Shown here: positions 10,869 through 30,332 of the stretch, one piece after another
Position numbering within the stretch: position 1 is the first letter of the stretch
Layout of the letters: each line of letters starts with the position of its first letter
Source: an uncultured Gammaproteobacteria bacterium
Lineage (GTDB): Bacteria; Patescibacteriota; Microgenomatia; Levybacterales; GWA1-39-11
NCBI GenBank assembly: GCA_964427615.1
Contig: CAYRUR010000001.1
Span: 119,303-183,302, forward strand
DNA: 64,000 nucleotides
Direction: 5' to 3'
The notes under the pieces: generated by a model
Seen by the model: only the letters and a program-made list of their open reading frames with translations
Databases searched by the model: none
What the model was told of the DNA's origin: nothing
Made by a program: the position numbers and the translations under genes

Positions 10869-13283
10869 ATGAAACTTGAAGGATTATCAGAAAAAGTATT
10901 TTTAGACAGATATGCTCTCAAAGATAAAAAGGGCAACCCTATCGAAAAAGACCCTCGCCAGATGTGGAGGAGAATTGCTAAGGCAGTAGCAGAGCAAGAA
11001 GAAGGAGAAAGTAAAAAGATTTGGGAAAAAGAATTTTATGAGGCTCTAAAGGGTTTTAAGTATGTTCCTGGCGGAAGAATCCATGCAGGCGCGGGAACTG
11101 GGTATCAAGTTACTTATTATAATTGTTTTGTAATTCCTTCTCCAAAAGATTCACGAGGTGGTATTATTGATACCCTCAAGCAAATGGTTGAAATTATGGC
11201 ACACGGTGGTGGTGTTGGTATCAACCTCTCCTCTCTTCGTCCTCGCGGTTTTCGAGTTAAGAAAGTAAATGGATTCTCCTCTGGTCCTTGTAACTGGGCA
11301 GAGCTGTTCTCTATTGCTACCAAAGATATTATTCAACAGGGTGGTACTCGTCGAGGTGCACTTATGTTAATGCTTTGGGACTGGCATCCTGATGTAGAAG
11401 AATTTATTACCGTAAAACAAGACTTACTCCGTATCAATGGAGCTAATCTTTCCGTATGTGTGTCTGATAAATTCATGGATGCAGTTGAAAAAGATGGAGA
11501 CTGGGATCTGGTTTTCCCTGATAAAGATGATCCAGATTATGATGAAAAATGGGATGGAGACCTAGAGGCTTGGAAAAAGCTTGGTAAAAAAGTAATAGTA
11601 CACAAAACAGTAAAGGCACGCAAGATATGGGATCTGATTGCTGAAGCTGCTTGGAAATCAGCAGAGCCAGGAGTAGTCTTCATGGAGCGCTACAACAAGC
11701 TATACAACAACTGGTACTGGAACAGCATCAATTGTGTAAATCCATGTGGAGAAGAAGGACTTCCACCATGGGGAGTATGTAACTTGGGTTCTATCAACCT
11801 TTCTGCTTTTGTCAAAGGGTATGAAGTAGATAAAAAAGGAGAGTTTGATTTTGAGACATTAAAGAAAGTAGTGAGAGTAGGAGTGAGATTCCAAGACAAT
11901 GTAGTGAGTATGGATCCATATATTTTTGAAGGAATTCGCAAGACACAGCTTGAGGGAGAAAGAAGAATTGGTCTTGGTACCATGGGTTTGGGAGATGCAC
12001 TAATTAAATTACACTTACGTTATGGTTCACCTGAAGCATTGGAGTTTATAGATGAAGTGTATAAGCTTATTAGAGACGAAGCATACAGAGCGTCATCTGA
12101 GATTGCCAAAGAAAAAGGAGCATTTCCAAAGTTTGATAAAGAACTTTTCCCACAAGGAGCATTTATCAAGCAACTTCCAAAAGACATCCAGAAGATGATT
12201 AAAGAGCAAGGGATTCGCAACTCGCTTCTTTTGATGCAAGCACCAACAGGGTCAATCTCTTTGATGGCTAACACCACTTCTGGTATAGAGCCGGTATATG
12301 AATTTGAATTTATCAGGAGAAGTAGAATTGGGGAGCATGTAATCAGACACCATTTGTATGATGAATGGTACAAAGTACATGATAAAGAACTGGAAGAAGG
12401 AAAAATACAAAGACCGGATTACTTTGTCTCTGCAAATGATCTTACTCCAGAAGAGCATGTGGAAACACAGGGTATCATCCAAAAATATGTGGATGCTTCT
12501 ATCTCAAAGACAGTAAATGCACCTAAGACGCATACTGTAGAGGATGTAAAAAGACTATATACCTTAGCTTACAAATTAGGTTGTAAAGGGATAACCTATA
12601 TGAGAGAAGGATCACGAGTCGGCGTATTAGAAAGAAAAGAGGACAAAAAAGAAGAAGTAAAGGAAGAAATAAAGCAATTACCACCTATTATGCGCAGGCC
12701 AATGGTCATGCAAGGAGTAACATATAAAACGCAAACACCACTGGGGAGTACCTTTATTACCATCAATGTAGACAAGGATGGTAATCCTTTTGAAGTCTTT
12801 ATTAATGCTGGGAAATCAGGTTCTGATGTCATGGCTATGGCAGAGGCATTAGGGCGCATGATTTCATTTGCTTTAAGAATGCAGGGTCCTATTGATTCAC
12901 GGGAAAAAATAGAAAGAATTATTGCCCAAATGACGGGTATCGGAGGTGCAAGAACAGTTGGCTTTGGTCCTAATAGAGTGAGATCTTTGCCTGATGCTGT
13001 AGCCAAGATCCTCGCTGATCACTTTGAATTTAAGGTAAATGGAAAAGTTACTGACGTAAAAAAGAATATAAAAGCTGATGCTATGGAGCCAGCTAGTCTT
13101 ACAAATGGACACGCAGCAGCAAATGAACATGCAGTGATGGCCTTACAACCATCTTTATTGCACGCTGAATCTGCTTCTTCTACAAATGATAGTTTTGATA
13201 TCTGTCCTGATTGTGGAACATCAGGTTTAGCACACGAAGAAGGTTGTATAAAATGTTACTCATGTGGATATTCCGCATGTTAA
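10869..13283 (+). CDS. nrdJ: Class II (adenosylcobalamin-dependent) ribonucleotide reductase with a C-terminal Zn-ribbon
   Basis: NrdJ-type N-terminus (VFLDRYALKDKKGNPIEKDPRQMWRRIAKAVA). Active-site region NPCGEEGLPPWGVCNLGSINL. C-terminal CPDCG...CIKCYSCG zinc ribbon. Length 804 aa. A start codon 2 nt after the nrdR stop indicates an operon. Confidence 0.85.
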   Translation: MKLEGLSEKVFLDRYALKDKKGNPIEKDPRQMWRRIAKAVAEQEEGESKKIWEKEFYEALKGFKYVPGGRIHAGAGTGYQVTYYNCFVIPSPKDSRGGIIDTLKQMVEIMAHGGGVGINLSSLRPRGFRVKKVNGFSSGPCNWAELFSIATKDIIQQGGTRRGALMLMLWDWHPDVEEFITVKQDLLRINGANLSVCVSDKFMDAVEKDGDWDLVFPDKDDPDYDEKWDGDLEAWKKLGKKVIVHKTVKARKIWDLIAEAAWKSAEPGVVFMERYNKLYNNWYWNSINCVNPCGEEGLPPWGVCNLGSINLSAFVKGYEVDKKGEFDFETLKKVVRVGVRFQDNVVSMDPYIFEGIRKTQLEGERRIGLGTMGLGDALIKLHLRYGSPEALEFIDEVYKLIRDEAYRASSEIAKEKGAFPKFDKELFPQGAFIKQLPKDIQKMIKEQGIRNSLLLMQAPTGSISLMANTTSGIEPVYEFEFIRRSRIGEHVIRHHLYDEWYKVHDKELEEGKIQRPDYFVSANDLTPEEHVETQGIIQKYVDASISKTVNAPKTHTVEDVKRLYTLAYKLGCKGITYMREGSRVGVLERKEDKKEEVKEEIKQLPPIMRRPMVMQGVTYKTQTPLGSTFITINVDKDGNPFEVFINAGKSGSDVMAMAEALGRMISFALRMQGPIDSREKIERIIAQMTGIGGARTVGFGPNRVRSLPDAVAKILADHFEFKVNGKVTDVKKNIKADAMEPASLTNGHAAANEHAVMALQPSLLHAESASSTNDSFDICPDCGTSGLAHEEGCIKCYSCGYSAC

Positions 13284-13289
13284 AAACAG

Positions 13290-13478
13290 TTAGTTTGTTG
13301 GTGTATGAAAAGTTAATAGTGAGTATTAGGTAAGAAGGGTGAAAATCCCTCACAGAGCCGCTACTGTTATAGTCAGAAAACGATACTCATGAGAAAGCCC
13401 GAGCTTGGCATTAAATATGGAGTCCTCTCGGGTGATCTTCTTTACTGAACAGGTAAAGAGAGAAACGAAGAGGATTTT
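13290..13478 (+). promoter_or_regulatory. Cobalamin (B12) riboswitch-like leader, copy 1
   Basis: Contains AAGGGUGAAAAUCCCUCACAGAGCCGCUACUGUUAUAG, which matches the conserved GGUGAAAAUCC...GC.G..CCGC.ACUGU core of Firmicutes B12 riboswitches. A B12-box-like AAAGCCCGAGCUUGGC follows, then a hairpin plus U-run before the ATG at 13482. Confidence 0.6.
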
Positions 13479-13481
13479 TTT

Positions 13482-13883
13482 ATGGCTACACTACTTAAAA
13501 ATAAAAAAGCTTTTTTAATACTCATCGGAATTACATTCGTTATTGTTGCTCTTGTTTTTGTTTTTCCAAGTATTCCTGCACAAAAGAGTGAAACAGAAAC
13601 TGTTATTACGCCAACAGTGGCTATTTCCAATCAAACTCAAAACATAGATTCTTTTACGTATCAAGGTGAAGAAGGTAAAAGTGCATTCGAGATCTTAGAA
13701 GTAAAAACAAAAGTAGAGATAGATAAAGTAGGTCTTGTTTCTGCTATCAATGGAAGAAAAGCAGATAACAGCAAAAGAGAGTTTTGGGCATTTTATGTCA
13801 ATGGCAAGTTAGCAGAAGTTGGTCCCAAAGATTACATTACGAAATCAACGGACAAAATAGAATGGAAAATAGAGACTTACTAA
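13482..13883 (+). CDS. Membrane-anchored DUF4430-like protein (putative transcobalamin-like cobalamin-binding protein)
   Basis: N-terminal transmembrane anchor. C-terminal region with the FWAFYVNGKLAEVGPKDY...IEWKIE pattern typical of DUF4430. First gene after the B12 riboswitch. Confidence 0.45.
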   Translation: MATLLKNKKAFLILIGITFVIVALVFVFPSIPAQKSETETVITPTVAISNQTQNIDSFTYQGEEGKSAFEILEVKTKVEIDKVGLVSAINGRKADNSKREFWAFYVNGKLAEVGPKDYITKSTDKIEWKIETY

Positions 13884-13884
13884 T

Positions 13885-14421
13885 ATGAAAAAATCCCACT
13901 TAGTAACTGCAACGCTGATTATTTTCTGTGGAGCACTTTTCCGATTTCTCCCTCATCCACCAAATTTTGCGCCTATTGCAGCTATGGCTCTTTTTGCAGG
14001 AGCGTATATGGACAAAAAATATGCTTTCTTTATTCCTTTTATAGCAATGTTTGTCTCAGATATTTTTCTGGGTTTTCATAATACGATGCCTTTTGTCTAT
14101 GTCAGCTTTTTTCTCGTAGGAGTTTTGGGAATGATGCTTAAAAAGCACTCTAAACCTCAAATGGTTATAGCAGCGGCTTTTGTGTCTTCCCTGTTATTTT
14201 TTGTGATTACCAATATTGGAGTATGGCTGAGTTCAGGGCTCTATGAGCAAAATACAAAAGGATTAGCGGAAGCATTTGTCCTTGCCATTCCTTTTTTCAA
14301 AAACACGCTGATGGGAGACTTGTTGTTTACTAGTGCTTTTTTTGCTCTGTTTGAATTTTTCAAAGCAACTTTGTTGAAAGAAAGGTTGTTGCATGAAAAA
14401 GCTTCTCAACCCAAAAGCTAA
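13885..14421 (+). CDS. Small polytopic membrane protein, ECF-transporter S-component-like (putative cobalamin or precursor uptake)
   Basis: 178 aa with about 5 predicted transmembrane helices. Start codon 2 nt after the previous stop. The context is a B12 riboswitch followed by PduO. Confidence 0.4.
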   Translation: MKKSHLVTATLIIFCGALFRFLPHPPNFAPIAAMALFAGAYMDKKYAFFIPFIAMFVSDIFLGFHNTMPFVYVSFFLVGVLGMMLKKHSKPQMVIAAAFVSSLLFFVITNIGVWLSSGLYEQNTKGLAEAFVLAIPFFKNTLMGDLLFTSAFFALFEFFKATLLKERLLHEKASQPKS

Positions 14422-14444
14422 ACAGTATTTTTACTATTTGCTAT

Positions 14445-15017
14445 TTGGTTTTTAATATTTCTATTATGCCTATTTATACAAAAACTGGAGACAAAGGAAA
14501 AACAGCATTACGGACTAATGAGCGGGTATGGAAAGATTCAGTACGCGTTGAAAGTTATGGAACAGTTGATGAGCTTAATGCGTATTTAGGGGTAGTGCTT
14601 TCTTATATTGATACAGATGCAAAAAAAGAATTGCGTTATGTAGCAGATCTAGTGGTTACAGTACAAAATGATTTGTTTTTTATTGGTTCTTATATTGCCA
14701 ACCCTGGTGAGAAGCGGGACCTGACAGTGCTTAACAAGCATATTACGTATTTTGAGGATGAGATAGATGGTATGACAGAGCAAATGCCAGAACTTAAAAA
14801 TTTTATTCTTCCAGGAGGAGGAAAGGTAGGAGCATCCTTGCAGTACGCACGTACTATTTCCAGAAGAGCGGAGAGAAAATTAGTTTCTTTGCACAAGGCA
14901 GAAGGGGTTGAAAAAGAAATTTTGCAGTATATAAATAGACTTTCTGACTTATTATTTACGTTGTCTCGCTTTGCCAATTACGTAGAAAAAAAGAAAGAGA
15001 TAATTTGGTCTTTGTAA
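14445..15017 (+). CDS. pduO: ATP:cob(I)alamin adenosyltransferase, PduO type
   Basis: N-terminus MPIYTKTGDKGKTALRTNERVWKDSVRVESYGTVDELNAYLG is the PduO-type ATR signature. Length about 190 aa. Confidence 0.85.
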   Translation: MVFNISIMPIYTKTGDKGKTALRTNERVWKDSVRVESYGTVDELNAYLGVVLSYIDTDAKKELRYVADLVVTVQNDLFFIGSYIANPGEKRDLTVLNKHITYFEDEIDGMTEQMPELKNFILPGGGKVGASLQYARTISRRAERKLVSLHKAEGVEKEILQYINRLSDLLFTLSRFANYVEKKKEIIWSL

Positions 15018-15256
15018 CGGGTGAATGAGGTGTAAATCCTCAGCTATGCCGTAGCTGTGATCTTAGGTAAATACTAAGAAAGTCAGATCCCCGTCTGTTT
15101 CAATATTTAATTTGAGAACAGGAAAAGTCTTTCGAGTCCATGTACCATGCGGTACAGGACCATGCGCTGAATAGTGCATGGCAAGAGCAATTTTGTATCC
15201 TTATCCTGCCTTCTCGAAATTCTGTTACAGAACAAAATGAGAAGGTTTTTTTATTG
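15018..15256 (+). promoter_or_regulatory. Cobalamin riboswitch-like leader, copy 2, with a rho-independent terminator as expression platform
   Basis: GAGGUGUAAAUCCUCAGCUAUGCCGUAGCUGUGAUCUUAGG parallels the copy-1 core (GGUG.AAAUCC...GC...CCG.AGCUGU). A B12-box-like AAGUCAGAUCCCCGUCUG follows. The terminator ccttctc...gagaagg plus TTTTTTT lies at 15209-15252, just before the ATG at 15265. Confidence 0.5.
15209..15252 (+). terminator. Intrinsic terminator (riboswitch expression platform)
   Basis: Stem CCTTCTC/GAGAAGG enclosing the sub-hairpin ttctgttacagaa, followed by a 7-T run. Confidence 0.55.
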
Positions 15257-15264
15257 TTATTGTT

Positions 15265-16665
15265 ATGGATCTTGAATCAAGAACAGTTACTTATCAAATA
15301 CAAAGAAATGAAGCTTTTTATGCTGATAATTCTTCTTTAGAAGGAGAATTTCATGATTTACAAAGAGAGTGGATTCGTGAAGAGGAAGATGAATGGTACT
15401 TGTTGCCTGGAACAGGATTTAATGTGAAGCTTCAAGTTGAGTTATTACGCAAGGATCTTGAAGAAGGATTAGAAAAAGGAGAATCGTATGAGGACATTAT
15501 TGAGAAGTGGCTCCAAAAAACAGAACAGGACATTCATGGGTTTAAAATTGAGTATTTGTGTGAGGGCTTGTTATTTCCTATTATGTTGGACAAAGAAGTA
15601 GTAAACGCAGAAGAAAGAATTGTTGCGCCTTTATATGGAGGAAAACTGTTTGTAGACACAGTGAGTGAGCAAGAGCGTTTGGGAAGTGTAAAAAAAGCTA
15701 TCGTGGGTGATCCAGAAACAGGCAAAGAAGGAATAGAACACTTTTTACTCACCGCTCATCCTGGATCTGTTTCAGTTATGACCAGTCCTCCTGGTTGGAG
15801 TGGTTTTGAAGGAATTACGTACCCTGACTCTCAGACTTATATTTGGCAGATACAGGAAGACAGGTCTATTAGAGGGTTTACGGTGCGTACTGATATGGAG
15901 GTAAAAGAAAACATAAAGTTATTAGAAACACTAGGTGAAGATATGAGTGCTATGAAAGGCAAAAATGAACAAGAAAGGTTGGCAGGAATTGTCGGAACAC
16001 CGGTGTTTTTAAGGGGAAATGATGAAAAGCAGTGGAGTATCGAAGATATTGTGAATGCTATTAGATCAGTAAAACACACAAAATCAGCGTATAAAGAAAG
16101 AGGTTTTGATGAAATTTATGATCAGCTTGAAAATCCTGAGTCTTTATGGACGCTTGATGAAACAACACGTAAGCTCGTTGCAGAGTTTAGAAGATATGTG
16201 TGGGATCAAGTATATAATGGTGAAGGAGATAGAGAGAAAAACATTCAAAGAGCATTGGGAATGACTGTTCTGGAACTGGCTAAGAGAATACGTAGACCTA
16301 AGAGAGAAGAGATAGCATACGACGATGAGTGGGTAGGTGAGGAATATAGTTTAGGAGGTGGATTAGTGTCAGGAGATCGGTATCGTGATGTTTTATCTGA
16401 TGTGCAACAATTAGGAGGATGTAATGGCGGAGGAGGTGAGGGTGAAAGTATGCCTGATAGCTATATTGTTAACTCTATTACTCCTCGAATTGGTGTGAGA
16501 AATGAAGTTGATTACTCGAAAGATCCAAATTTATGTAGATGTAGTAATAGCCTTCCTCATTTTCACTGTCCTGGTAAAAAAGAAGGAAAGCCTTGTAAAG
16601 AAAAAATTATCTATGGAAAAGGAATTAAAAAGTGTCCTAGTTGTGGAGAAGGAAAAAAATGTTAA
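15265..16665 (+). CDS. Hypothetical acidic cytoplasmic protein with a Cys-rich C-terminus; putatively B12-riboswitch-controlled
   Basis: 466-aa ORF with no transmembrane segments and no recognisable enzyme motif. C-terminal CRCSNSLPHFHCPGKKEGKPCKEKIIYGKGIKKCPSCGEGKKC suggests metal binding. Confidence 0.55.
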   Translation: MDLESRTVTYQIQRNEAFYADNSSLEGEFHDLQREWIREEEDEWYLLPGTGFNVKLQVELLRKDLEEGLEKGESYEDIIEKWLQKTEQDIHGFKIEYLCEGLLFPIMLDKEVVNAEERIVAPLYGGKLFVDTVSEQERLGSVKKAIVGDPETGKEGIEHFLLTAHPGSVSVMTSPPGWSGFEGITYPDSQTYIWQIQEDRSIRGFTVRTDMEVKENIKLLETLGEDMSAMKGKNEQERLAGIVGTPVFLRGNDEKQWSIEDIVNAIRSVKHTKSAYKERGFDEIYDQLENPESLWTLDETTRKLVAEFRRYVWDQVYNGEGDREKNIQRALGMTVLELAKRIRRPKREEIAYDDEWVGEEYSLGGGLVSGDRYRDVLSDVQQLGGCNGGGGEGESMPDSYIVNSITPRIGVRNEVDYSKDPNLCRCSNSLPHFHCPGKKEGKPCKEKIIYGKGIKKCPSCGEGKKC

Positions 16666-16814
16666 ACAAAAATTCGCAAGAGAATTGTGATGTCTGTTTT
16701 AAAATCAAATGTCGCGGATGTGGGTGGGAGCCAACAGAGGAAGAGGTAGCAAAAATCCAAGCAGGAGAACTGAGAACTTGTCCTTTGTGTGGTTGGCAGC
16801 CAGGAGAAAAATAA
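16659..16814 (+). CDS. Small (51 aa) zinc-ribbon protein, start overlapping the previous stop (ATGTTAA)
   Basis: MLNKNSQENCDVCFKIKCRGCGWEPTEEEVAKIQAGELRTCPLCGWQPGEK has a CxxC...CxxC...CPLCG arrangement. It is absent from the ORF track because it is under 60 aa. Confidence 0.4.
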   Translation: MLNKNSQENCDVCFKIKCRGCGWEPTEEEVAKIQAGELRTCPLCGWQPGEK

Positions 16815-16828
16815 GCTAGTATAAAAGA

Positions 16829-17533
16829 GTGAAGTCTTTTTTACTTAATCTCCTTTTTCCAAAACGCTGTATTCAGTGTAAAAGGCTTGGTTCTTTTGTC
16901 TGTTCTGATTGTTTTGCACACATTCAGTATGCTTCTTTGTCTCTTTGTCCCATGTGTCTTAGACCTTCAGTTGATGGTCTCACGCATCCTGCCTGTTCCA
17001 AACCTCTCGGACTTGATGGGCTGATTACGGTGGTAGAGTATAAAGGAATTATTAAGAAACTGCTCTACCAACTCAAATATGCACCTTATCTTACGAGCCT
17101 AACTACAGTTATTAAAAATCTTTCATATGAGGCATTAATTCAAGATGAAAGTTTTATGTATATTAAAGCCCAAAATCCTTTTCTTATTCCTGTGCCTTTG
17201 CATGTAAAAAAAGAAAGAAAAAGAGGGTATAACCAAGCAACACTTATTGCAAGGCAGATAGCAGATTCATTTGATCTTTCTCTTGAAAATAAAGTGCTTA
17301 TAAGAAGTAAACATACAAAGCCTCAATTTAAGCTCTCAAAAGAAGAAAGAAAAGAAAATATAAAAGATGCTTTTGAGGTGACTGCAAAAGGAAAGGAAGT
17401 TATAAATGGTGCTACCATTTTTGTAGTAGATGATATTGCTACTACCTGTTTTACCCTGCGTTCATGCGCTAAAATCCTCAAAAGAAATGGAGCAAAAAAA
17501 GTCTACGGTTTAGTATTTGCCAAGGAGTATTGA
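16829..17533 (+). CDS. comFC: ComF/ComFC-family phosphoribosyltransferase-domain protein (competence-related)
   Basis: N-terminal Cys cluster (CIQCKRLGSFVCSDCF...CPMC) and a C-terminal PRTase motif (TIFVVDDIATTCFTL). Confidence 0.7.
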   Translation: MKSFLLNLLFPKRCIQCKRLGSFVCSDCFAHIQYASLSLCPMCLRPSVDGLTHPACSKPLGLDGLITVVEYKGIIKKLLYQLKYAPYLTSLTTVIKNLSYEALIQDESFMYIKAQNPFLIPVPLHVKKERKRGYNQATLIARQIADSFDLSLENKVLIRSKHTKPQFKLSKEERKENIKDAFEVTAKGKEVINGATIFVVDDIATTCFTLRSCAKILKRNGAKKVYGLVFAKEY

Positions 17534-17555
17534 GTAAAAAATATTAGATTGTAAA

Positions 17556-17614
17556 AGGCAAAAGGGCACCTCAGATTTTGGAAAGTCGTAAGACTCCCTC
17601 GTCGTTGGTGCCCT
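17556..17614. terminator. Bidirectional intrinsic terminator between convergent genes
   Basis: aaaagggcacc...ggtgccctttt forms an 11-bp GC-rich stem with T-runs on both strands. It lies between the comFC-like stop (17533) and the stop of the GC-rich ORF (17714). Confidence 0.5.
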
Positions 17615-17713
17615 TTTACACTTATCAAAGTTTCGGAAAGTTGACTGATAACGGGTTCATCCGTCCTGCTTGTGCAAGCCCTCTGTACGAGGTTTAGTGT
17701 ATTAAGCTGTAAG

Positions 17714-18460
17714 TTACTCGTCGTTGAGTTGGATGCTGAGTAGGGCGGGATTGAGAACACCGCCGTTCTCGTTAGCTAGCTCGCCCTCGTTCCCGATTTG
17801 GGTGTCGAGGTTGTGCCAACGACGGAGCTGTTCCCCGTGTTTCCAGCAACGAGCGAGCATTGTGACAGCAGCGCCGAACATGAAGCCTGTGATGCCTTCA
17901 AGGTCCGCTTCGTGCGATGTAGCGGAAGCTACCTCTTCGAGGGTCTTCCCGTTAGATATCTCGACCTGCATGAGTCGCGCCCATCGTTGAGCGTATGTGA
18001 TAACGGCACCGCCGTAAGGATCTCGGTTGGCCAGCATGGCTTCTTCCCAAGCATCTGGGTTAGACTCCTCCATAGGAGGAGCACCTTTGAGCTTCGCCTC
18101 CAGAGCATTGCGCTTGGCTTTAGCTTGCGCCTCGTACTCAGCTTGCAGTTCCTGGCGTCTGCGCTCGTTCTTGGCTTCGACCTGGTTGTCATTCTCCTTC
18201 TCCTCGTCGGTAAGGACAAGGTTTGGGTAAGGACCGACGTTGGGGTCGATATAATGATGGAGCGCCCGATGCCAATCCCGAAAGATAAGATCAGGACTAG
18301 AGTCCTTGCGAACACTAACCCTTACCTCATTGAAGTCGAACGTAATGAGGCACCCATCTTCCTCGGCTGATAGAGCGATAGCTTCAACGATGGTATTGCG
18401 GATATGTGCTCCTGCACCAACCTCAAAGACAATTTCCTTCTTTCGCCAAAAGTTACTCAT
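17714..18460 (-). CDS. Hypothetical protein encoded on a compositionally foreign (GC-rich) segment
   Basis: 248-aa ORF in a stretch visibly far more G+C-rich than the rest of the window. GGAGG RBS 8 nt upstream of the ATG. Acidic, Ala/Glu-rich helical protein of unknown family. Spurious antisense ORFs in this stretch fit high GC. Confidence 0.55.
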   Translation of the reverse strand: MSNFWRKKEIVFEVGAGAHIRNTIVEAIALSAEEDGCLITFDFNEVRVSVRKDSSPDLIFRDWHRALHHYIDPNVGPYPNLVLTDEEKENDNQVEAKNERRRQELQAEYEAQAKAKRNALEAKLKGAPPMEESNPDAWEEAMLANRDPYGGAVITYAQRWARLMQVEISNGKTLEEVASATSHEADLEGITGFMFGAAVTMLARCWKHGEQLRRWHNLDTQIGNEGELANENGGVLNPALLSIQLNDE

Positions 18461-18836
18461 GATCTTTTCCTCCAGTCAATTCGGACATACTTACATTGGC
18501 TACCTCCAAATGGATAGCACTCTAAACACAATAATAATTTGTGCTCAAGGTGCTACCCATTTAAGGTTTAATACTTTCCGTAAACTATCAAAGTGCAAGT
18601 AATTATAGATACAAATGAAGTAAGAAACAGACAGCAGTATGAGTCTATTCACACTTCAAATGTAAGTACGAAGTATAGCACAGAAGGCACAAAATATCAA
18701 TATTATAGGATTATGTTTTGGTATTTTTACATTGAAGGAGGTTTTTAGACACTTTCAGAAAGAGTGTGTTTTAAAGCTTGTTTCATTTGTCTTCTTCCGA
18801 ATCCATTTTTTAAAATACTTCACAAAAGTGAGGTTG

Positions 18837-19073
18837 TTATATCAGCCGTTTGTTACGAAATGCAAAGCCAGAACCTGTTTTTAAGTAGTTTTCAAATGAA
18901 AGTGCTTTCTTTTTAGTAGAAAATGCAGCGTAAAAAATGAGAGTAATAGGACGAAGGTTTTTAGTTGATTCTACTTTACCATTTTCGTGAGCCAAAATTC
19001 GTTGTTTCAGGTTATCTGAAAAGCCATGATAGTAAAAATTATCACTTAGTTTGAGAATGTACACATAGTACAT
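18837..19073 (-). CDS. GIY-YIG nuclease-family small protein (UPF0213/YhbQ-like)
   Basis: MYYVYILKLSDNFYYHGFSDNLKQRILAHENG matches the GIY-YIG signature (YxVYIL...G.YYxG.T.NL.RR...H). Length 78 aa. Confidence 0.75.
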   Translation of the reverse strand: MYYVYILKLSDNFYYHGFSDNLKQRILAHENGKVESTKNLRPITLIFYAAFSTKKKALSFENYLKTGSGFAFRNKRLI

Positions 19074-19238
19074 ATGTTTATTGTATAGTAAGTCCCACTA
19101 CACTTCCACTTCCGCTAAAGCTCCAGTGGACAAGAAAGTTTCGTGGGACACACTTCGCAGAGGCCAATTGAGGGAGTAGTGGAATATTGAGTGGCTGTGC
19201 CACACGAAGCTCTGTACTGTAAAGTACGGAGCGAAGTG

Positions 19239-19646
19239 TGGAGATGGGGAGGAGTGACCTCCCGTCCAAAAAATACAAATCACAACGTCTACAAGCATAG
19301 TCAGTTTTTAAGTGTCGTCATATCCTTATCCAACTGACAGGAAAAAATATGACCAAGGCTTTTTAAGAGCACAAAAGACAAGCCAAATCTTTTGCTCTTT
19401 CCTCACCTGGGTTATTGCCTATAAGGAAGCGATGAGGGACTCATCTTATAGACAGCTCGCATTAAGCTGCGAATGCAAAAGCGGGAGTTACCCCAACTTT
19501 TGGCATGGCATCAGCAAAAACTTGCCTGATACCGCGGCTGATGGATTTACCTTCAGCATGTATTATTTGATCCTGTTTTATGACGCATGAATCAACGTCA
19601 GCTTGCTGTTGTAAAAGTGCATTTCCTGTCGAATCAATTCATCCCC
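19239..19646 (-). ncRNA. ssrA: tmRNA (SsrA)
   Basis: Read on the minus strand, the 5' end GGGGAUGAAUUGAUUCGACAGGAAAUGC matches the tmRNA consensus GGGG.UGA.U.GGAUUCGAC.GG. The 3' end GGACGGGAGGUCACUCCUCCCCAUCUCCACA forms a T-arm and an acceptor stem. The acceptor 5'-GGGGAUG pairs with 3'-CAUCUCC, giving the G3:U70 Ala identity pair. An internal tag-like frame ends ...PAFAFAA-TAA and is followed by a hairpin. The gene abuts smpB. Confidence 0.7.
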
Positions 19647-20106
19647 GTCGTGAAAATCGCTTCAGCTCTTCTTGTGCTTCTCTGTCCAAATCTCTTTGTC
19701 TTAACTCTTTTTTGCGTTCAAATTTCTTTTTTCCTTTGACTAAGGCAATTTCAAGCTTGATTAAGACTCCCGTAGTATAAAGGGCGGTAGGGATGATTGT
19801 CAAGTTACCCTGATCCATTTTTGATTTTAGGGCAAGAATTTGTTTTTTATGCAGTAACAGTTTGCGAGTTCTGCCTTCATCATATCCATCGGTGCGAGCG
19901 AATTGGTATGGATAAATTTTAGCATTCACCAAATGTGCTTCTGAATTCATAATTCGCACATACGATGCAGAGAGATCAGCATGGCCTAGTTTTACTGCTT
20001 TTACTTCTTGTCCGGTCAGCGCAATACCTGCTTCTAATTTTTCTAAAATAGTAAATTCTGCTGGTGCTTTTTTATTTACAATTCTCATATGCCCCTTTGC
20101 TTTCAA
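19639..20106 (-). CDS. smpB: SsrA-binding protein SmpB
   Basis: 155 aa; EAGIALTGQEVKAVKLGHADLSASYVRI...LLLHKKQILALKSK is a typical SmpB core. Its last codons overlap the tmRNA 5' end. Confidence 0.9.
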   Translation of the reverse strand: MKAKGHMRIVNKKAPAEFTILEKLEAGIALTGQEVKAVKLGHADLSASYVRIMNSEAHLVNAKIYPYQFARTDGYDEGRTRKLLLHKKQILALKSKMDQGNLTIIPTALYTTGVLIKLEIALVKGKKKFERKKELRQRDLDREAQEELKRFSRRG

Positions 20107-20332
20107 AGTTTAAATACATAATACCAAACGGAGCTTTGTATGGGTAGTATTGTGAGCTTGTAATGTCAGTGCTGCTTTCGTTTTGAAAGCTACGGTAGGC
20201 ATATACAAATTTGTAATACAAAGCAGAGTGATATAAGTAGGTGTATTGTAGCGCAAATAGGGTAAAATGTGAAAGAGTACAAGTTACGACAAAAAAGAAT
20301 TGTTTGTAAGCCTTACATTACTTACACCATTT

Positions 20333-20368
20333 CCTCTCCCTTTCTAAGGGAGAGGATGAAGGTGAGGG
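20333..20368 (+). repeat. Left imperfect terminal inverted repeat flanking the DUF559 gene
   Basis: cctctccctttctaagggagaggatgaaggtgaggg matches the reverse complement of 20735-20771 (ccttctccctttttaagggagaaggtagggatgaggg) at about 31 of 36 positions. Each copy also contains its own hairpin. Confidence 0.6.
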
Positions 20369-20380
20369 TTGATACATACG

Positions 20381-20776
20381 ATGCCAAACCGTAGAAATGA
20401 GGAAAACATACCTGTTGCCAAGAAGCTGAGAAGGAACCAAACTAACTCTGAAAAATTATTATGGTCTTATTTAAGAAATAGGAATATTGATGGGGTAAAA
20501 TTTAGACGACAGTATCCAATAGGAGTGTATGTTCTTGATTTTGTAAGCATTGAAAAGAAACTTGTGGTAGAAATTGATGGAGGACAACACAATGAACAAG
20601 ATCATAAGGAGTATGATGATATACGTTCATCTTGGTTACAACAAGAAGGGTTTCGAGTATTGAGGTTTTGGAATAATGAAATTTTAGAAAATAGTGAAGG
20701 AGTGGTTTTCAAAATAAGAGAAGAATTAGGTAAACCCTCATCCCTACCTTCTCCCTTAAAAAGGGAGAAGGAGTAA
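20381..20776 (+). CDS. DUF559 (Vsr/restriction-endonuclease-like fold) domain protein
   Basis: LRRNQTNSEKLLWSYLRNRNIDGVKFRRQYPIGVYVLDFVSIEKKLVVEIDGGQHN...FRVLRFWNNEI is the characteristic DUF559 pattern. An alternative TTG start lies at 20369. Confidence 0.8.
   Translation: MPNRRNEENIPVAKKLRRNQTNSEKLLWSYLRNRNIDGVKFRRQYPIGVYVLDFVSIEKKLVVEIDGGQHNEQDHKEYDDIRSSWLQQEGFRVLRFWNNEILENSEGVVFKIREELGKPSSLPSPLKREKE
20735..20771 (+). repeat. Right imperfect terminal inverted repeat (lies inside the last 13 codons of the DUF559 ORF)
   Basis: See left repeat. The sequence ccctcatccctaccttctcccttaaaaagggagaagg encodes PSSLPSPLKREKE. Confidence 0.6.
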
Positions 20777-20858
20777 ATTAAGACAGCTTTTCTTAAAAGG
20801 GAAAGAGACGCTACTTGGGAGAAAATATTTTAGGCAGAGTTCTGGTAGGAGTTTTCGT

Positions 20859-22712
20859 TTAGAGTGAAAAAGTATAAATTTTGGAGTTGCTTACAACATA
20901 TAACGTGTGATTTGGTTCATCTACTGCAAATGAGGTGGCATTTTTAAAAATATCTGAAGTATATTGTTTGGCAAACGAACCACTTTTTTGGATAGATACC
21001 ATTCGTTTTCCAGAGGGGTCAAGTACATAAAGATTTGCATAATCAACATCGGTGTAAATACTGCTTCCTTTGCCAATAGAGGTGGGAAGCCCTTGTATAG
21101 AGAAAGCATCTTTGCTGCCTCGTGTATATTTTTGAATACTTCCATCATCTAAAAGAACCCAGACAGAGGCATCAATACTAAATGATACGGGATTTTTAGA
21201 AAAATCAGGTTCTTGGCTAAAATAATCAGTGTCATTATATGCTTCAGGAATAAATTTTTTAATAGTATTTTGGCGCGTATCCAGCACGTAAATGTTATTT
21301 CCAAAGGTACTAATACTTTTTGGAGCTTGTAGGTCTTCTATAATTGTTTCGTTTTCTTTTTCATTCTTTTCTTGTTTGATAACAGAGTCATTAGTAAGCA
21401 TGTAAAAATAGTCTTCATCTGCACTAATATCTACCACCCGTGTTGATTCACCTTCAAAAAATTGTTCTATTTCTCCGCTTTTAGAAAGTAAAACAGCAGA
21501 AGTATTATTTGTTCCTGTGGCAATAATACTGCCCCCTTTAATAGTAATATGCCCAACTTGTTTTATTTTTTCCTGAGATGGATCAAAAAAGAGTTTTTCT
21601 CCTCCCAGTTGTTCTCCTCCTCCTAGTTTTTGAATCTCAGCATTTACTTTTTCAAGGAGGGTATCTAATTGTTCTCGTTCAGGAGTGCCTTGAGGGAATT
21701 TGTCCTGTTCTGCAAGGAGTATTTTTTTGGCTTCATACAGTGTTTCAAGAGCAAGTGGTTTATTTAAAGATGCAAGCGCTATTGCTTCATCCAACTGTTG
21801 CTGGGTAGGTGCAAGAATATGGGCAAACTCTTCTTGTAACTGTTTTTTTTCTTTATTCATGTTTTCATGTATAATTCCGCCTATTAATATACTTAAAAGA
21901 ACAGCGATACCAATACCAATAAGCACATTTTTTTTCAAAAGCACCTCTTTTTTTGGTATATGAAGGTTTTTGATAAAAGAAGAAAGAGTAGCAGGATGAG
22001 GTATGCGCTCTTTAAGGGTGGTGATAAAAGATGGTTTTAGGGCTTCTGGTTTTTCTTGTTTTTGCTCTTCGTCTTTTTCTACTTCTTCGAAAGTTTCCTC
22101 ATCTGCTAAATAGCTTGCATCGTGGCTTTGAATTTGCAGGACTATAGCTGCTTCTGTGCCTTGTGGTTCTGTACTGATAAGCGGAGCAAGTGTTTCTGCA
22201 ATATCCAGGATGTTGATAGTTTTGGTAAAGGTTTGATAGAGGGAGGGATCTATCTTCTGGGCAAAGCCTGGCGTTTGCAGAAAAAGCATATCGTTGTGAC
22301 GTAGCTCTCCTGAAAAGCCAGTAATGCTTTGTGGTTCTGCTTCTGCAATAATTCCAATAGTCTCATCTCTTTTTAAGAGTACTTTTCCGGCTGATGAGAT
22401 AATAATATAAGCAACTCCTTCAATGATCGTTACCAAAACAAGTGAGTGCTCTATTTCAGCAGGGATAATAGATACAGTATTTTCTACTGCTTGTTTTATG
22501 GTAGATAGATTTTTTTCGTCAATTGCAAAGTATTCTCGTTGTAGTTTTTCAAGGACTTCTTTTCCTAAAGTAGTGGGTTGGATATCTGATTCACCCTGTT
22601 TTTTAAGGCTGACTACAACAAACACATGTAACGTGGAAAAAGCCTGCGCCCAGGTTTTTTCTGTTGTATTTGAAACGAGTTTTTCGTGAACAATAGTATA
22701 GTTTTGGTTCAT
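20859..22712 (-). CDS. Hypothetical bitopic membrane protein with a C-terminal beta-propeller-like repeat region
   Basis: One central transmembrane helix (VLIGIGIAVLLSILIGGII), a coiled-coil segment, and repeated YVLD / YMLTND / YVVSN beta-strand motifs. Unknown family. Confidence 0.5.
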   Translation of the reverse strand: MNQNYTIVHEKLVSNTTEKTWAQAFSTLHVFVVVSLKKQGESDIQPTTLGKEVLEKLQREYFAIDEKNLSTIKQAVENTVSIIPAEIEHSLVLVTIIEGVAYIIISSAGKVLLKRDETIGIIAEAEPQSITGFSGELRHNDMLFLQTPGFAQKIDPSLYQTFTKTINILDIAETLAPLISTEPQGTEAAIVLQIQSHDASYLADEETFEEVEKDEEQKQEKPEALKPSFITTLKERIPHPATLSSFIKNLHIPKKEVLLKKNVLIGIGIAVLLSILIGGIIHENMNKEKKQLQEEFAHILAPTQQQLDEAIALASLNKPLALETLYEAKKILLAEQDKFPQGTPEREQLDTLLEKVNAEIQKLGGGEQLGGEKLFFDPSQEKIKQVGHITIKGGSIIATGTNNTSAVLLSKSGEIEQFFEGESTRVVDISADEDYFYMLTNDSVIKQEKNEKENETIIEDLQAPKSISTFGNNIYVLDTRQNTIKKFIPEAYNDTDYFSQEPDFSKNPVSFSIDASVWVLLDDGSIQKYTRGSKDAFSIQGLPTSIGKGSSIYTDVDYANLYVLDPSGKRMVSIQKSGSFAKQYTSDIFKNATSFAVDEPNHTLYVVSNSKIYTFSL

Positions 22713-22948
22713 AGAAATAGCACAATACCAAATAAAAGTAGTATAGAAAGTATGGCGTGGACATGGGCAAAGGTAGCAAAGATAGGAGAAAAAGAAACTT
22801 GGTCAATGATGCGCGAAAGCGTACGGATTTGATTTGCTAAAATCAGAGCAAATAGAGTGTAGAGAAGCAGTAATACAATAAGCGCAATCTTAAATAAGAA
22901 ATCTTGGTTGAGTGAAAGGGAAAGTAATTGAAAGAATTCTTCGTTCAT
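22709..22948 (-). CDS. Small two-helix membrane protein
   Basis: 79 aa, hydrophobic. Overlaps the downstream gene by 4 nt, suggesting an operon. Confidence 0.35.
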   Translation of the reverse strand: MNEEFFQLLSLSLNQDFLFKIALIVLLLLYTLFALILANQIRTLSRIIDQVSFSPIFATFAHVHAILSILLLFGIVLFL

Positions 22949-22957
22949 ATATACTAA

Positions 22958-23617
22958 TTATATTATAAGGTTTGTGATAATTCTGGCAACTCGAGCAGGT
23001 TGCGGAATTCTATCAAATTCAACATTTACATGCGGCCCAGCGGTTTGGATAGAGACTGAGCCTAGTCCAAAGATAGCATGTAAGCCACCCACTTGTTTGT
23101 AACTAACGTCTTCTATTAGATTCAGTTTTGTCTCTGCAATATCACGTACTAAAATCCCATTCAAGTCTACATCAATAGCACGTTTGTTAGTAATAAGTCC
23201 TACATGAAAGTACCAGAGGGTAAAATTAAGTAGGATAAATCCAGATACGATCAAATAATAAAAAAGTAAAAAGGCAGTAGTCGTAGTAGAGGAAGGGTTA
23301 AAGAATGGAAAGACAGAAAGAAGAGAGGGTAAAAAGAAAGGAACCAAAACCATCACAAATGCACCCAAAATCCAGGTGAGGTTAGTAATAAATCCTCTTC
23401 TGATAAGCAAGATTATCTCTTCATCTTCCTCCTGATATTGGTAATGGACTCCTTTGGGACGGGCAACTAAAGAGCTGTAAAAATGGGGAGAGTGGGGAGT
23501 TGTGATATCAAGATCTTCTACCTCAGTAGTTTTCTTTTTTCCAGAAGTTGTAGAATGAGATTTGGTATCTGATAAATGAAATTCTCCTTTCAGTGGTGAG
23601 TGCGTATCTTTTTCCAT
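22958..23617 (-). CDS. Membrane protein with a bacterial PH (bPH_2/DUF304, YdbT-like) domain
   Basis: Two adjacent transmembrane helices followed by TNKRAIDVDLNGILVRDIAETKLNLIEDVSYKQVGGLHAIFGLGSVSIQTAG, a typical bPH_2 fold pattern. Confidence 0.55.
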   Translation of the reverse strand: MEKDTHSPLKGEFHLSDTKSHSTTSGKKKTTEVEDLDITTPHSPHFYSSLVARPKGVHYQYQEEDEEIILLIRRGFITNLTWILGAFVMVLVPFFLPSLLSVFPFFNPSSTTTTAFLLFYYLIVSGFILLNFTLWYFHVGLITNKRAIDVDLNGILVRDIAETKLNLIEDVSYKQVGGLHAIFGLGSVSIQTAGPHVNVEFDRIPQPARVARIITNLII

Positions 23618-23634
23618 ACAACGTATAAATGTGA

Positions 23635-25365
23635 TTATTTGTGTTCTATATTAAAGAATGCCCAGCCACCTTCACAGGTGCTTTGTGGGATACGAATATA
23701 TCCAGGTGCTCTAAGGCAAACTGCCCTTTTGAATTCGAGACCAGTCATGCTGATATTATTGATTATAACCCGGTTTGTAGTATTATTTCCTTGTTCGATT
23801 TTCACACTTGTTGCTGAGCTTATCCCTCCATGAGTGCTTACGAGATTTCTTAACTCTTCCATGCTATACGGGTTTTTTTCTGGCCAGCAGGAAGTAGTAA
23901 CTGGAGCAATTCTTGAAGTATCAATACCTCCTACCTTGAGAGCAATTGCAGCATTAGCAATATCTGCCATTTCTTCAGGAGAAAGCCATGGATTTGTACG
24001 CCCACAGGTATCACCATACTTGCTTGTACCATTTCTCCACCAAGCTTTATATCCCCATGGAGATCCTGCTGTTTTTTCATACGTCTTATCCATGAAATTT
24101 TCTCCGCGTTGACCATCTGTAGTATCCCAGCCTGATGTATTTAGCCAACCTCCTGTTATGGCTGAATATTGTCTATTATTTATACCTCCTGTCATAATCA
24201 TTCCCTCAGTTTCTTTTACCGCTTGTTTCCATGTGTCAGTATTTTCTTCAAGTTTTACTTCTTGACAGTCTTGATTTGGGCAGACAGTAGATTTACCGTA
24301 TGCATAACTCCTTGCAGCAATTGCTTGCACCTTCAATACTTCTAATGGCCATGATCCAGGCATTTCGTAAATATGTTTTAAATAGTCTTCAAGTTGATAT
24401 GATACGTTGTTGAAATTTTGTCCGTATGTATTTGTTCCATTAACTGTAATAGTTTGATTAGTATCTACCTTGGTAATTTCTACACCAGGATAATAGTGTT
24501 TTAATATTTGCTCTGCTGATTGTCCTTGTTGGACTCTTCCGAGTGCTCCGTATTGGCTCATACCATTTCTATGTGTATATGCGCCTATAGAGAATATTGC
24601 AAAATATCCACTAGGGGCAGTATCTTGAAAACCTTTCAGAGAAGATAGGTATTCATCAGCTAATTCACCACTGCCTATACTAATAGTAAAGTTCCCACTT
24701 CTAGCAGACATGATTTGTTTTTGTTTTGCACTCAATTCTGCAATTTGACTGGAGACTGAGGCTTGATAATTTTTTGCACCAGCTACAACTTCTTCAATCT
24801 TTTGTCTTTCTGCAGCAAGTCTTGTTTTTACACTGCTGAGTCTTTTTTCCTCGCTTTCCAATGTTTTTTTTCGTTGTTCTAAGTCTGCAATTTTGATAGC
24901 TGTGTTGGTGATAATTGCTTTATTTATATCTGCTTTTTGTTTTTGAAATGTTATGGCCTGTATTAGCTCTGAGGCACTGGCACTTGAGAGAAAGATAAGA
25001 ATGGGTGGAAAACTTGCGTTTTGCATGTAGTACTCTCTGCTTGCTCTACTGAAAAGATCTCTTTGTTTTTCAAAATCTTTATATCCTTCTTCGATGTCTT
25101 TTTTCTTACGTACGATATCATTTTCTATAAATGCAATTTGGTTTTCAATGCCTGCGATTTGTTTCTTCATACTTGCGATTTGTGACTCAAGTGGAGTAGT
25201 GGCTTTTTTTGATGCCTCCAGTGCTTGTTGTAGCTCGCTTAATTTCCGATTAATATCATCCAATTCATCAGAGTAAGCAGAAGGCACAGAAGTAGTAAGA
25301 GTGAAAATGACAATAGCAAAGAGTCCACAGGAGAGCAGGAGCAGCTTTTTCATAGGTAGCAACAT
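23635..25365 (-). CDS. Secreted coiled-coil protein with a SpoIID/LytB-like domain (putative peptidoglycan-remodelling lytic factor)
   Basis: Signal peptide; a ~230-aa heptad-rich coiled coil; then GYFAIFSIGAYTHRNGMSQYGALGRVQQGQSAEQILKHYYPGVEI, which matches the SpoIID motif (G.SQ.GA...A..G..Y..IL..YY.G). Confidence 0.6.
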   Translation of the reverse strand: MLLPMKKLLLLSCGLFAIVIFTLTTSVPSAYSDELDDINRKLSELQQALEASKKATTPLESQIASMKKQIAGIENQIAFIENDIVRKKKDIEEGYKDFEKQRDLFSRASREYYMQNASFPPILIFLSSASASELIQAITFQKQKADINKAIITNTAIKIADLEQRKKTLESEEKRLSSVKTRLAAERQKIEEVVAGAKNYQASVSSQIAELSAKQKQIMSARSGNFTISIGSGELADEYLSSLKGFQDTAPSGYFAIFSIGAYTHRNGMSQYGALGRVQQGQSAEQILKHYYPGVEITKVDTNQTITVNGTNTYGQNFNNVSYQLEDYLKHIYEMPGSWPLEVLKVQAIAARSYAYGKSTVCPNQDCQEVKLEENTDTWKQAVKETEGMIMTGGINNRQYSAITGGWLNTSGWDTTDGQRGENFMDKTYEKTAGSPWGYKAWWRNGTSKYGDTCGRTNPWLSPEEMADIANAAIALKVGGIDTSRIAPVTTSCWPEKNPYSMEELRNLVSTHGGISSATSVKIEQGNNTTNRVIINNISMTGLEFKRAVCLRAPGYIRIPQSTCEGGWAFFNIEHK

Positions 25366-29238: not shown

Positions 29239-29328
29239 GGAGGAGTCGCATAGCTGGTCCATTGCGGGGGTTTGCTAAACCCCTGAGCCTTTTGGCTCGC
29301 GCAGGTTCGAATCCTGTCTCCTCCGCCA
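29239..29328 (+). tRNA. tRNA-Ser (anticodon GCU) with long variable arm, CCA encoded
   Basis: GGAGGAG...anticodon stem GGGGU/ACCCC with loop UUGCUAA...variable arm UGAGCCUUUUGGCUCGC...GCAGG-UUCGAAU-CCUGU-CUCCUCC-G-CCA. Confidence 0.8.
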
Positions 29329-30218: not shown

Positions 30219-30305
30219 GGAGAGGTGCTGGAGTGGACGATCAGGAAGGTCTTGAAAACCTTTGTGGGTGCAAGCTCACCGTGGGTTCGAATCCCACCCT
30301 CTCCG
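30219..30305 (+). tRNA. tRNA-Ser (anticodon UGA) with long variable arm
   Basis: GGAGAGG...anticodon stem AAGGU/ACCUU with loop CUUGAAA...variable arm UGUGGGUGCAAGCUCACCG...GUGGG-UUCGAAU-CCCAC-CCUCUCC-G. Confidence 0.8.
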
Positions 30306-30332
30306 CATAGGTGATATAGGTAAACGCCTTAT

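Follow-up and report, generated by a model that had tools for sequence, protein, structure and literature searches.

Tad4 belongs to a group of phage proteins, Tad3 to Tad7, which are reported to bind ThsB, the TIR protein of Thoeris, and to block its NAD+-processing active site with a flexible loop. Phage morons are autonomous promoter-gene-terminator units with a deviating nucleotide composition. In this work we analyzed a gene reminiscent of both, located in a 64,000-nt stretch of a metagenomic contig (GenBank CAYRUR010000001.1, positions 119,303 to 183,302; this whole stretch is hereafter called the window), for which the named best LepA matches are from Candidatus Levybacteria (63-67% identity). 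The gene is the GC-rich open reading frame (ORF) at positions 17714-18460 of the window (minus strand), which encodes a protein of 248 aa. We consider it probable that it forms a genuine, horizontally acquired Tad4-like cassette, placed between a pair of genes for transfer-messenger RNA (tmRNA) and a GIY-YIG protein on one side and comF on the other, in the chromosome of a Levybacteria-like Patescibacterium. A two-domain, chromosomal, mobile cassette form of the Tad4 family was not found described in the literature.

The preliminary description of this region, made from the sequence alone, reported a segment with GC-rich codons in AT-rich surroundings, and the calculations bear this out. In 300-nt windows the GC content is 0.50-0.56 over 17550-18449, compared to 0.30-0.44 elsewhere between 12 and 24 kb. 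The ORF, which is intact, has 53.7% GC vs 37.3% for the remaining window, which is the maximum among all 750-nt windows (mean 37.5, sd 2.9); in comparison with the other genes of the window (37%), z is 5.8. Its GC content at third codon positions (GC3) is 0.582, compared to 0.285 +/- 0.045 in the 58 other ORFs of the window (z 6.6); with z of 3.2 for the first and 0.6 for the second codon position, the deviation is mainly due to codon choice and not only to amino-acid content. The encoded protein is acidic (pI 4.96, 42 D+E vs 27 K+R), and a GGAGG ribosome-binding site (RBS) is present at 18469-18473 (minus strand), 8 nt before the ATG, in agreement with what had been noted before.

In contrast to the initial statement that no family could be recognized, residues 135-229 (17774-18058, minus strand) match the Tad4 family of Pfam (PF25186, inhibitor of type I Thoeris) with 97.3 bits (cut-off 25) and an E-value of 8.8e-28, covering profile positions 6-103 of 113. 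The protein also matches phrog_9822 (E 2.3e-31), and PF25186 is present in all 120 homologues among the matches listed. Membership in the Tad4 sequence family is demonstrated by these profile matches. There is no NCBIfam model that matches the protein and no PADLOC defence model that does, hence annotation pipelines will call it hypothetical.

The AlphaFold (AF2) model built from 20 homologues (pLDDT 90) comprises an N-terminal alpha/beta domain (aa 1 to ~75; 18236-18460, minus strand) with the order beta-beta-alpha-beta-beta-alpha, a long charged helix of 40 residues (aa 85-124; 18089-18208, minus strand) that links both domains, and a helical C-terminal domain that spans aa 135-241. The protein had been described as helical, which is adequate for the model as a whole (60% helix) but not for its N-terminal domain. 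Foldseek searches of BFVD with the N-terminal domain identified many phage proteins of 60-75 aa, e.g. ICP1 ORF66 and a protein of phiPMW (probability 1.0, TMt 0.7-0.8), and this domain also has a weak match to DUF7254 of Pfam (E 0.14). For the C-terminal domain, the BFVD predicted structures include a match to a protein of Mycobacterium phage Kumao (E 1e-9). In the genomes of cultured phages tblastn reported 33 records with the C-terminal domain only (aa 126-217, 35-55% identity), of which 29 are from large Bacillus phages; the hosts represented are Bacillus (mostly myophages), Mycobacterium, Xanthomonas and Listeria. Phage relatives of ~115-125 aa match only the C-terminal part of the window protein; relatives from cultured phages have neither the N-terminal domain nor the tail at the C-terminus (aa 218-244). 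A sizeable part of the family (in loci L015, L016, L018 and others; L numbers denote the contigs and loci used for comparison) resembles the relatives from Bacillus phages in stopping at about profile position 211-217, without the conserved tail NxxTQxGxEGExANExGGVLNPALL. The homologue in L020 appears to be frameshifted.

The likeness to Tad4 thus lies in the C-terminal domain, which aligns to 98 of the 113 profile positions. The differences are that the window protein, with its 248 aa and two domains, is not a small single-domain protein but has, in addition, the N-terminal domain, the long helix and a C-terminal tail that is conserved, and that known Tad4 is phage-encoded, whereas the gene in the window is chromosomal in a Patescibacterium and has no phage genes nearby.

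The unit to which the gene belongs extends beyond the ORF. The window segment ~17631-18598 (minus strand) is a single-gene cassette of ~0.96 kb with its own leader, RBS, 3' element and complementary ends. Its homology to locus L004 runs from -138 to +77 around the ORF (988 nt, 69% identity), and comparable units are shared by L003 and L014 (-115 to +32), L010 and L020 (-205 to +149) and L007 and L011 (-102 to +66). The conservation of non-coding flanks together with the ORF in unrelated contexts indicates a cassette and not just a gene. All features of the cassette are on the minus strand. The left inverted repeat (IR-L; 18573-18598), with the core TTTACGGAAAGT at 18573-18584 and an extension to TTGCAC, coincides with the upstream limit of homology to L004 (-138), and the right inverted repeat (IR-R; 17619-17641), with the core ACTTTCCGAAA at 17631-17641 and an extension, is complementary to IR-L and lies at the downstream limit (+77). 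The 5' leader contains a long conserved hairpin (18503-18567; fold z -5.55), for which seven related leaders reveal 25 predicted pairs, 11 of them with compensatory changes. The 3' untranslated region (UTR) contains a conserved element at 17642-17696, predicted to fold into three small hairpins, which is 87% identical to L004 over 60 nt and also common to L155 and L034. Neither the window cassette (including the leader hairpin and the 3' element, E <= 10) nor the commonest cassette type has a match in Rfam. In the IMG/VR database, a 24-nt leader pattern of the window-type cassette gave no hits, while the 40 hits to a 15-mer taken from the 3' element were due to chance, no homologue being located beside any of them.

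In related cassettes the flanks contain sigma-70-like promoters (clear TTGACA-N17-TAnnnT sites), long leader hairpins, GGAGG-type RBSs, 3' hairpins and terminators. In the window, the best sigma-70-like site (TTGATA-17-TATACT with TG, 18672-18700, minus strand; 10/12 consensus matches), a putative promoter by consensus match only, is located outside the shared cassette. The same is true for the palindrome AAAAGGGCACC/GGTGCCCTTTT (17560-17570 and 17607-17617), situated between the ORF and the convergent comF: the homology ends at +77 and the stem starts at +97. The GC-rich stem-loop terminator proposed previously has its stem, AAAAGGGCACC...GGTGCCCTTTT, but with a loop of 36 nt it was not flagged by the terminator scan, because the loop exceeds 8 nt; it is likely to be a bidirectional terminator. 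The cassette is similar to phage morons in that it comprises one gene of deviating composition, accompanied by regulatory flanks and inserted between unrelated genes, even if the promoter-like site and the hairpin in the window are just outside the shared unit; it differs from them in that it is found in bacterial chromosomes, has flanks with structured RNA and is enriched after tRNA and tmRNA genes.

Homologues of the window protein are numerous. A word-indexed search identified 422 clusters at 90% identity, most of them full-length (~245 aa) and 50-67% identical to the window protein, whose named members are from Patescibacteria; a profile search of 1.84 billion representatives reported 2,249 clusters (50% identity) at E <= 1e-3 and 389 at E <= 1e-30. 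For the comparison of loci we used 38 from species-representative genomes and 33 from IMG/VR. In the genome loci, nearly all from Patescibacteria and from many classes thereof, the gene has 53-65% GC vs 32-52% in the flanks, whereas in the viral contigs of IMG/VR the GC of the gene agrees with that of its flanks. The family is commonly represented in Patescibacteria by a solitary GC3-rich ORF, and most copies from the candidate phyla radiation (CPR) have a GC3 of 0.72-0.88; lower values are found in the window copy (0.58) and in L004, L026, L202 and L015-L017 (0.35-0.65). As regards the immediate flanks, they have 38-49% GC in the cassettes and 52-64% around the phage copies. GC-rich tailed phages also encode the two-domain protein, there with the GC content native to the phage: a full-length homologue is found in L043 (68% GC), a few kb from terminase and portal genes, and another in L203, within a YqaJ-RecT-DnaB region. 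Phage homologues of the C-terminal domain (~61% identity) can have a GC3 as low as 0.19, which means that the protein does not require GC-rich codons. The search for a donor did not go beyond a best CPR-viral DNA identity of 77% over 312 nt, with flanks that are not shared.

The neighbour-joining tree of the family mixes the CPR classes, with GC-rich copies from viruses as the closest outgroups to each of the two CPR clades. Cassettes from metagenome-assembled genomes (MAGs) of Nomurabacteria and Saccharibacteria are 85% identical at the DNA level. The genomic contexts differ from copy to copy: the cassettes follow rplJ-rplL or alaS, stand beside a Y1 transposase or a tyrosine recombinase (the latter adjoins the L159 copy), or lie among fragments of insertion sequences (IS). 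In the window, the neighbours of the ORF are genes for SmpB, tmRNA, ComF, RNR and B12-related functions, the ComF-like gene (16829-17533, plus strand; Pfam DZR_2 and Pribosyltran) being convergent with the cassette. The cassette is absent from all 80 SmpB-anchored metagenomic loci. In the closest of them, L075 and L077 (SmpB 59% identity), a B12 riboswitch comes after p617, SmpB, tmRNA and ComF, in this order; there is no GIY-YIG gene, no DUF559 gene as in the window and no cassette, the equivalent site being empty. The suspicion of horizontal acquisition in the preliminary description is thus supported by foreign synonymous sites, by syntenic relatives without the cassette and by a tree that ignores the taxonomy of hosts, and at the level of sequence the acquisition by horizontal transfer is shown.

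As a beginning of this history, we propose that the gene would have been a phage anti-defence gene, which would now circulate among Patescibacteria as a moron-like expression unit. Its product may bind a TIR-type NAD+-processing protein and block the active site, as reported for Tad4 and ThsB. We infer both the anti-TIR function of the window protein and the means of insertion; the beneficiary may be the mobile element, the bacterium itself or its symbiosis. Several observations weigh against this reading. The cassette-free syntenic relatives are distant (SmpB 59% identity), no repeat derived from the tmRNA as an attachment (att) site was found in 17300-19700, and there is no integrase, transposase or phage gene between ~7.5 and 34.6 kb of the window. 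The relatives in cultured phages have a single domain, with an identity of no more than 55% that is confined to aa 126-217; no entry in PDB resembles the model, either by sequence or by fold; and the link to the tested Tad4 is through the Pfam family. The search for TIR/Thoeris genes covered only part of the 64-kb window, and PADLOC, run for all 59 ORFs of the window (alignment route), was uninformative on Thoeris, its summary being swamped by UvrD/GajB models. Finally, GC3 near 0.8 is kept in spite of dS of 0.3-0.9 among copies and co-diverging flanks of 38-49% GC, hence a simple recent import from a GC-rich donor is insufficient.

As to the function, a doubtful alternative, to which we nonetheless give some weight, is that the protein is not directed against Thoeris. 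With the same Tad4-like binding domain it could, as an orphan immunity protein, counteract toxins of competitors or hosts that degrade NAD+, or it could regulate an NADase of the cell itself. This would agree with a gene that is chromosomal, solitary, intact and under purifying selection, with no phage genes around it, and with the presence of an N-terminal domain and a tail (aa 218-244) that the cultured-phage relatives do not have. In none of the loci examined, however, is a toxin or a TIR partner adjacent to the gene, and the only functional knowledge on this family is the inhibition of ThsB.

An alternative for the cassette as a whole, which we regard as improbable, is a non-autonomous DNA transposon, similar to mobile insertion cassettes, with IR-L and IR-R as its terminal inverted repeats and a transposase acting in trans. 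In the window type the inverted repeats are indeed at the limits of the shared unit, IS-related genes stand beside some copies, and long inverted repeats flank the cassettes in L021 (35-132/1153-1250; 98 nt, 100% identity), L023 (1938-2035/3063-3160; 98 nt, 93%) and L159 (5779-5849/6855-6925; 71 nt, 82%), the left arms being found around -220 to -315 and the right arms around +125 to +270. The start of one short contig of the Logan assemblies is inside the left long repeat. A counterpart of the IR-L/IR-R pair was found in 13 loci, with differing sequences, and its arms co-vary: UUACGG/CCGUAA of the window type corresponds to UUGCG/CGUAA with a G.U pair in L034 and to UUGCGG/CCGCAA in L035 and L036, and UUGACAAGCAGAC/GUCUGCUUGUCA corresponds to UUAAUAAGUAGAC/GUCUACUUGUUAA in L205. 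Such wobble intermediates point to pairing of RNA rather than DNA, and we propose that IR-L and IR-R probably join the 5' and 3' ends of the mRNA in a helix; less probably, they serve a DNA element as its terminal repeats or are sites of inversion. RNAduplex z-scores for the pairing of 5' and 3' flanks, obtained with a method that over-extends, single out only the long inverted repeats of L159 and L023, and L035 as well if narrower windows are used. The transposon is further contradicted by the cassette type that bears a hammerhead ribozyme (see below), in which the homology runs ~70 nt and 55 nt beyond the inverted repeats, by the lack of other copies of the IR motif in the window, and by the lack of a target-site duplication that holds. 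The candidate considered for the latter, the direct repeat CTTTGATA (18586-18593 and 17623-17630), was rejected, as its left copy is conserved in L004 and L155, within the extended inverted repeat, and thus belongs to the conserved left end.

The age of the cassette in this genome requires a separate comment. The preliminary description called the acquisition recent, which we find doubtful: the nearest homologue is 67% identical, dS to the closest relatives is saturated, and GC3 of 0.58 is below the 0.72-0.88 of most family members. Saturated dS and intermediate GC3 argue against a very recent arrival. The dN/dS ratio is ~0.12 in comparisons with L004 and L155 and 0.12-0.45 across comparisons, and these ratios show the intact ORF to be under purifying selection, as estimated from sequence divergence. 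The window copy is 68% identical to that of L155, 63% to that of L004 and 53% to that of L202. The last of these genomes shares the synteny of the window although it is distant (SmpB 39% identity); in it the cassette lies 152 nt after the tmRNA and occupies the space between the 3' ends of the tmRNA and SmpB genes, which are only 13 nt apart in L075 and L077. The greater proximity of the window copy to L155 and L004 than to L202 suggests that the cassettes in the window and in L202 were separate insertions at one hotspot.

These data also bear on the unlikely explanation that an old gene of Patescibacteria has been inherited vertically, with GC-rich codons kept by selection or by a biased process, and was never acquired. 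Among the copies dS ranges from 0.3 to >2 and yet GC3 remains at 0.72-0.88; the flanks co-diverge with the ORF; a copy is found next to the tmRNA in the syntenic genome L202 too; and the phage homologues with GC3 of 0.19 indicate that something other than the protein sequence keeps the codons GC-rich. What speaks for acquisition instead is the patchy distribution (0/80 SmpB-anchored loci), the closer relationship of the window copy to L004 and L155 (63-68%) than to L202 (53%), the tree in which CPR classes are mixed, and the unrelated genomic contexts. For the acquired cassette, GC3 near 0.8 in copies with dS of 0.3-0.9 is difficult to explain by drift within AT-rich genomes, the more so as the AT-richer flanks co-diverge. 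The persistence of high GC3 implies either that each copy arrived recently from a pool with a mixed structure, or that GC-rich codons are maintained in the ORF.

The position next to the tmRNA gene (19236-19646, minus strand; Rfam RF00023, 122.5 bits) is as reported before, with the 3' end of the tmRNA 775 nt upstream of the ORF start on the same strand. Among the 26 genome loci with enough upstream sequence, eight have a same-strand tRNA that ends no more than 1 kb upstream, vs none of 28 viral loci (binomial P 6e-7 against a rough expectation of 3%), and the window and L202 add two tmRNA cases to this count. ARAGORN missed the tmRNA in the window, in L202 and in L075-L077, which means that counts of tmRNA adjacency based on this program are underestimates. 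The idea of a tmRNA integration hotspot is therefore supported by the enrichment of the family after tRNA and tmRNA genes, but not by any tmRNA-derived att repeat in the window or integrase in its part from ~7.5 to 34.6 kb: the search for attL/attR repeats originating from the tmRNA 3' end returned only repeats of chance-level length (11-15 nt) in 17300-19700.

Repeats of this kind are seen elsewhere. In L022, a sequence that starts in the 3' end of tRNA-Gln recurs after the cassette, with an exact match of at least 19 nt and near-identity over ~84 nt, and in L008 there is a weak repeat of 13 nt that includes the CCA end of tRNA-Ala; the repeat in L202 is also weak. The arrangement in L022 is peculiar. 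Direct repeats of ~250 nt (5132-5385 and 6853-7090), which start in the 3' end of tRNA-Gln, bracket a 1.7-kb module composed of a 171-aa ORF and a Tad4-like gene, and a second module follows; each repeat contains a terminator, a tRNA-like T-arm segment and a promoter, so that the whole looks like a tandem array of cassettes.

The GIY-YIG gene (18837-19073, minus strand; 78 aa, Pfam E 1.9e-13) is located beside the ORF, as stated in the preliminary description, which also linked it to the acquisition. That link is not supported, given its presence without the cassette in at least 12 related loci with the order SmpB-tmRNA-GIY-YIG (GIY-YIG 60-69% identity); the gene also has a host-like composition, and its occurrence in the cassette-free relatives identifies it as a lineage-conserved neighbour of the tmRNA and not as cargo. 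A stand-alone 78-aa GIY-YIG gene is directly 3' of the tmRNA in L076 (where it appears to be frameshifted), L080, L086, L088, L091-L093, L097, L102, L104, L107 and L139.

Known islands targeted to tRNA and tmRNA genes, and cis-mobilisable elements that lack an integrase, resemble the cassettes in their location downstream on the same strand and in the tRNA-end repeats of L022 and L008; the window differs from them in having a single gene, no integrase or att repeat, and the conserved GIY-YIG gene in between. That the region is a remnant of a tmRNA-targeting integrative island, with which the GIY-YIG and the GC-rich gene would have arrived together, is a very unlikely explanation: the two genes follow the tmRNA and share its strand, members of the family are often found behind tRNA and tmRNA genes, more than expected, and the repeats of L022 and L008 include a tRNA 3' end, but the GIY-YIG gene follows the tmRNA in at least 12 cassette-free relatives and is host-like in composition, and neither a tmRNA-derived repeat in 17300-19700 nor an integrase in ~7.5-34.6 kb was found.

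The GC-rich stretch is genuine, and an assembly error is not supported. The Logan assembly of the run SRR7082976 contains a 12,261-bp contig (L001) that corresponds to window positions 11735-23995 with 0 mismatches and covers both junctions, i.e. a second assembler yielded an identical sequence. The assembly chimera or contaminating GC-rich fragment that the preliminary description allowed for, to which the sharp GC steps at both ends of the ORF (seen here and in ~20 other loci) and the many homologues on contigs of ~1 kb might have pointed, can be dismissed as hardly credible, given that this assembly crosses both junctions, that an ORF-sized GC step recurs inside contigs of more than 20 unrelated MAGs assembled independently (including contigs of 371 kb and 674 kb), and that the AT-richer flanks are conserved along with the ORF.

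Matches to structured RNAs of known classes are found in the UTRs of a different cassette type. In the 3' UTR of the L010/L206 type, the Rfam model Hammerhead_3 (RF00008) has a full-model match to L206 2378-2432, assigned to type III, with a score of 39.8 bits (E 4e-6), below the gathering score of 48.5. The core CUGAUGA...CGAAA is present 3' of the ORF in L010 (6862-6890), L020 (2993-3021), L205 (2305-2327), L206, L207, L038 (985-1008) and L039 (1735-1757). The hammerhead directly follows the 3' arm of the end-pairing helix, and its cleavage is predicted ~10 nt after IR-R. RAGATH-10 has full-model matches in the 5' UTRs of L006 (116-193) and L205 (1367-1445), with 36.6 and 32.6 bits (gathering score 41.2), which end at the RBS. 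In these two loci a segment CCUCAUCU has two alternative partners for pairing, an upstream sequence and the GAGGAG site, an arrangement reminiscent of a translational switch. The search of Rfam did not find a hammerhead in the window.

Most RAGATH motifs, and the reason for their association with particular genes, are unexplained (PMC11061315; PMC6765202), and the function of bacterial self-cleaving ribozymes is still called open in reviews (PMC6765202, PMC11061315). The Tad4-like cassettes resemble the known genes associated with hammerhead, twister and RAGATH RNAs in that one subtype has matches to a type III hammerhead at the 3' side and to RAGATH-10 at the 5' side; they differ in that all three matches are below the gathering scores and that the window type has analogous, unclassified structured UTRs. 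We speculate, as a rather distant possibility, that the Tad4-like cassettes are one of the unexplained gene classes accompanied by bacterial hammerheads and RAGATH RNAs, and that each unit as a whole is an RNA-hardened anti-defence message. Its coding body would be GC3-rich, its leader structured and switch-like, and its 5' and 3' ends joined in a panhandle; in one subtype, cleavage by the hammerhead would take place ~10 nt beyond this panhandle. The Patescibacteria would keep these units in their chromosomes and exchange them, perhaps against TIR immunity or NADase toxins in the course of episymbiotic life, and the window cassette would carry a new, unclassified version of the UTR elements.

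The window contains several other features of potential interest. A gene for a DUF559/Vsr-like endonuclease (20369-20776, plus strand) is located between p617 and SmpB, which are 82 nt apart in L075; with no DUF559 match in the 80 SmpB-anchored loci, it looks like a second small insertion at this locus. A cobalamin riboswitch (14975-15112, plus strand) lies upstream, on the same strand, of a gene (15265-16665, plus strand) for an orphan protein of 466 aa with a Cys-rich C-terminus, which has no match in Pfam, PHROG or NCBIfam, is the sole member of its cluster and is without homologues in the 80 SmpB-anchored loci. An ORF of 257 aa with a LAGLIDADG_3 domain (29374-30147, minus strand) is situated between the tRNA-Ser genes 29239-29328 and 30219-30306, and the gene at 31344-32180 (plus strand) encodes a protein that joins an ATP-cone with a restriction endonuclease domain of the Mrr type. 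A TraG/VirD4-like coupling protein is encoded at 26259-28658 (minus strand), 7.8 kb from the window cassette; a similar gene is found in the Parcubacteria locus L002 (1642-3654), 4.3 kb from the cassette, which may be a coincidence.

Anti-defence proteins of the Tad4 type are known as phage genes, and here their domain is found in a two-domain protein, encoded by a self-contained cassette that many ultra-small bacteria dependent on a host have in their chromosomes. The question arises what purpose a TIR inhibitor would have in such cells, how a one-gene unit that has no recombinase reaches the flanks of tRNA and tmRNA genes, and what keeps GC3 as high as 0.88 in AT-rich genomes next to AT-richer flanks. 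The subtype with hammerhead and RAGATH-10 matches would, in addition, provide a concrete gene with a proposed function for probing bacterial self-cleaving ribozymes.

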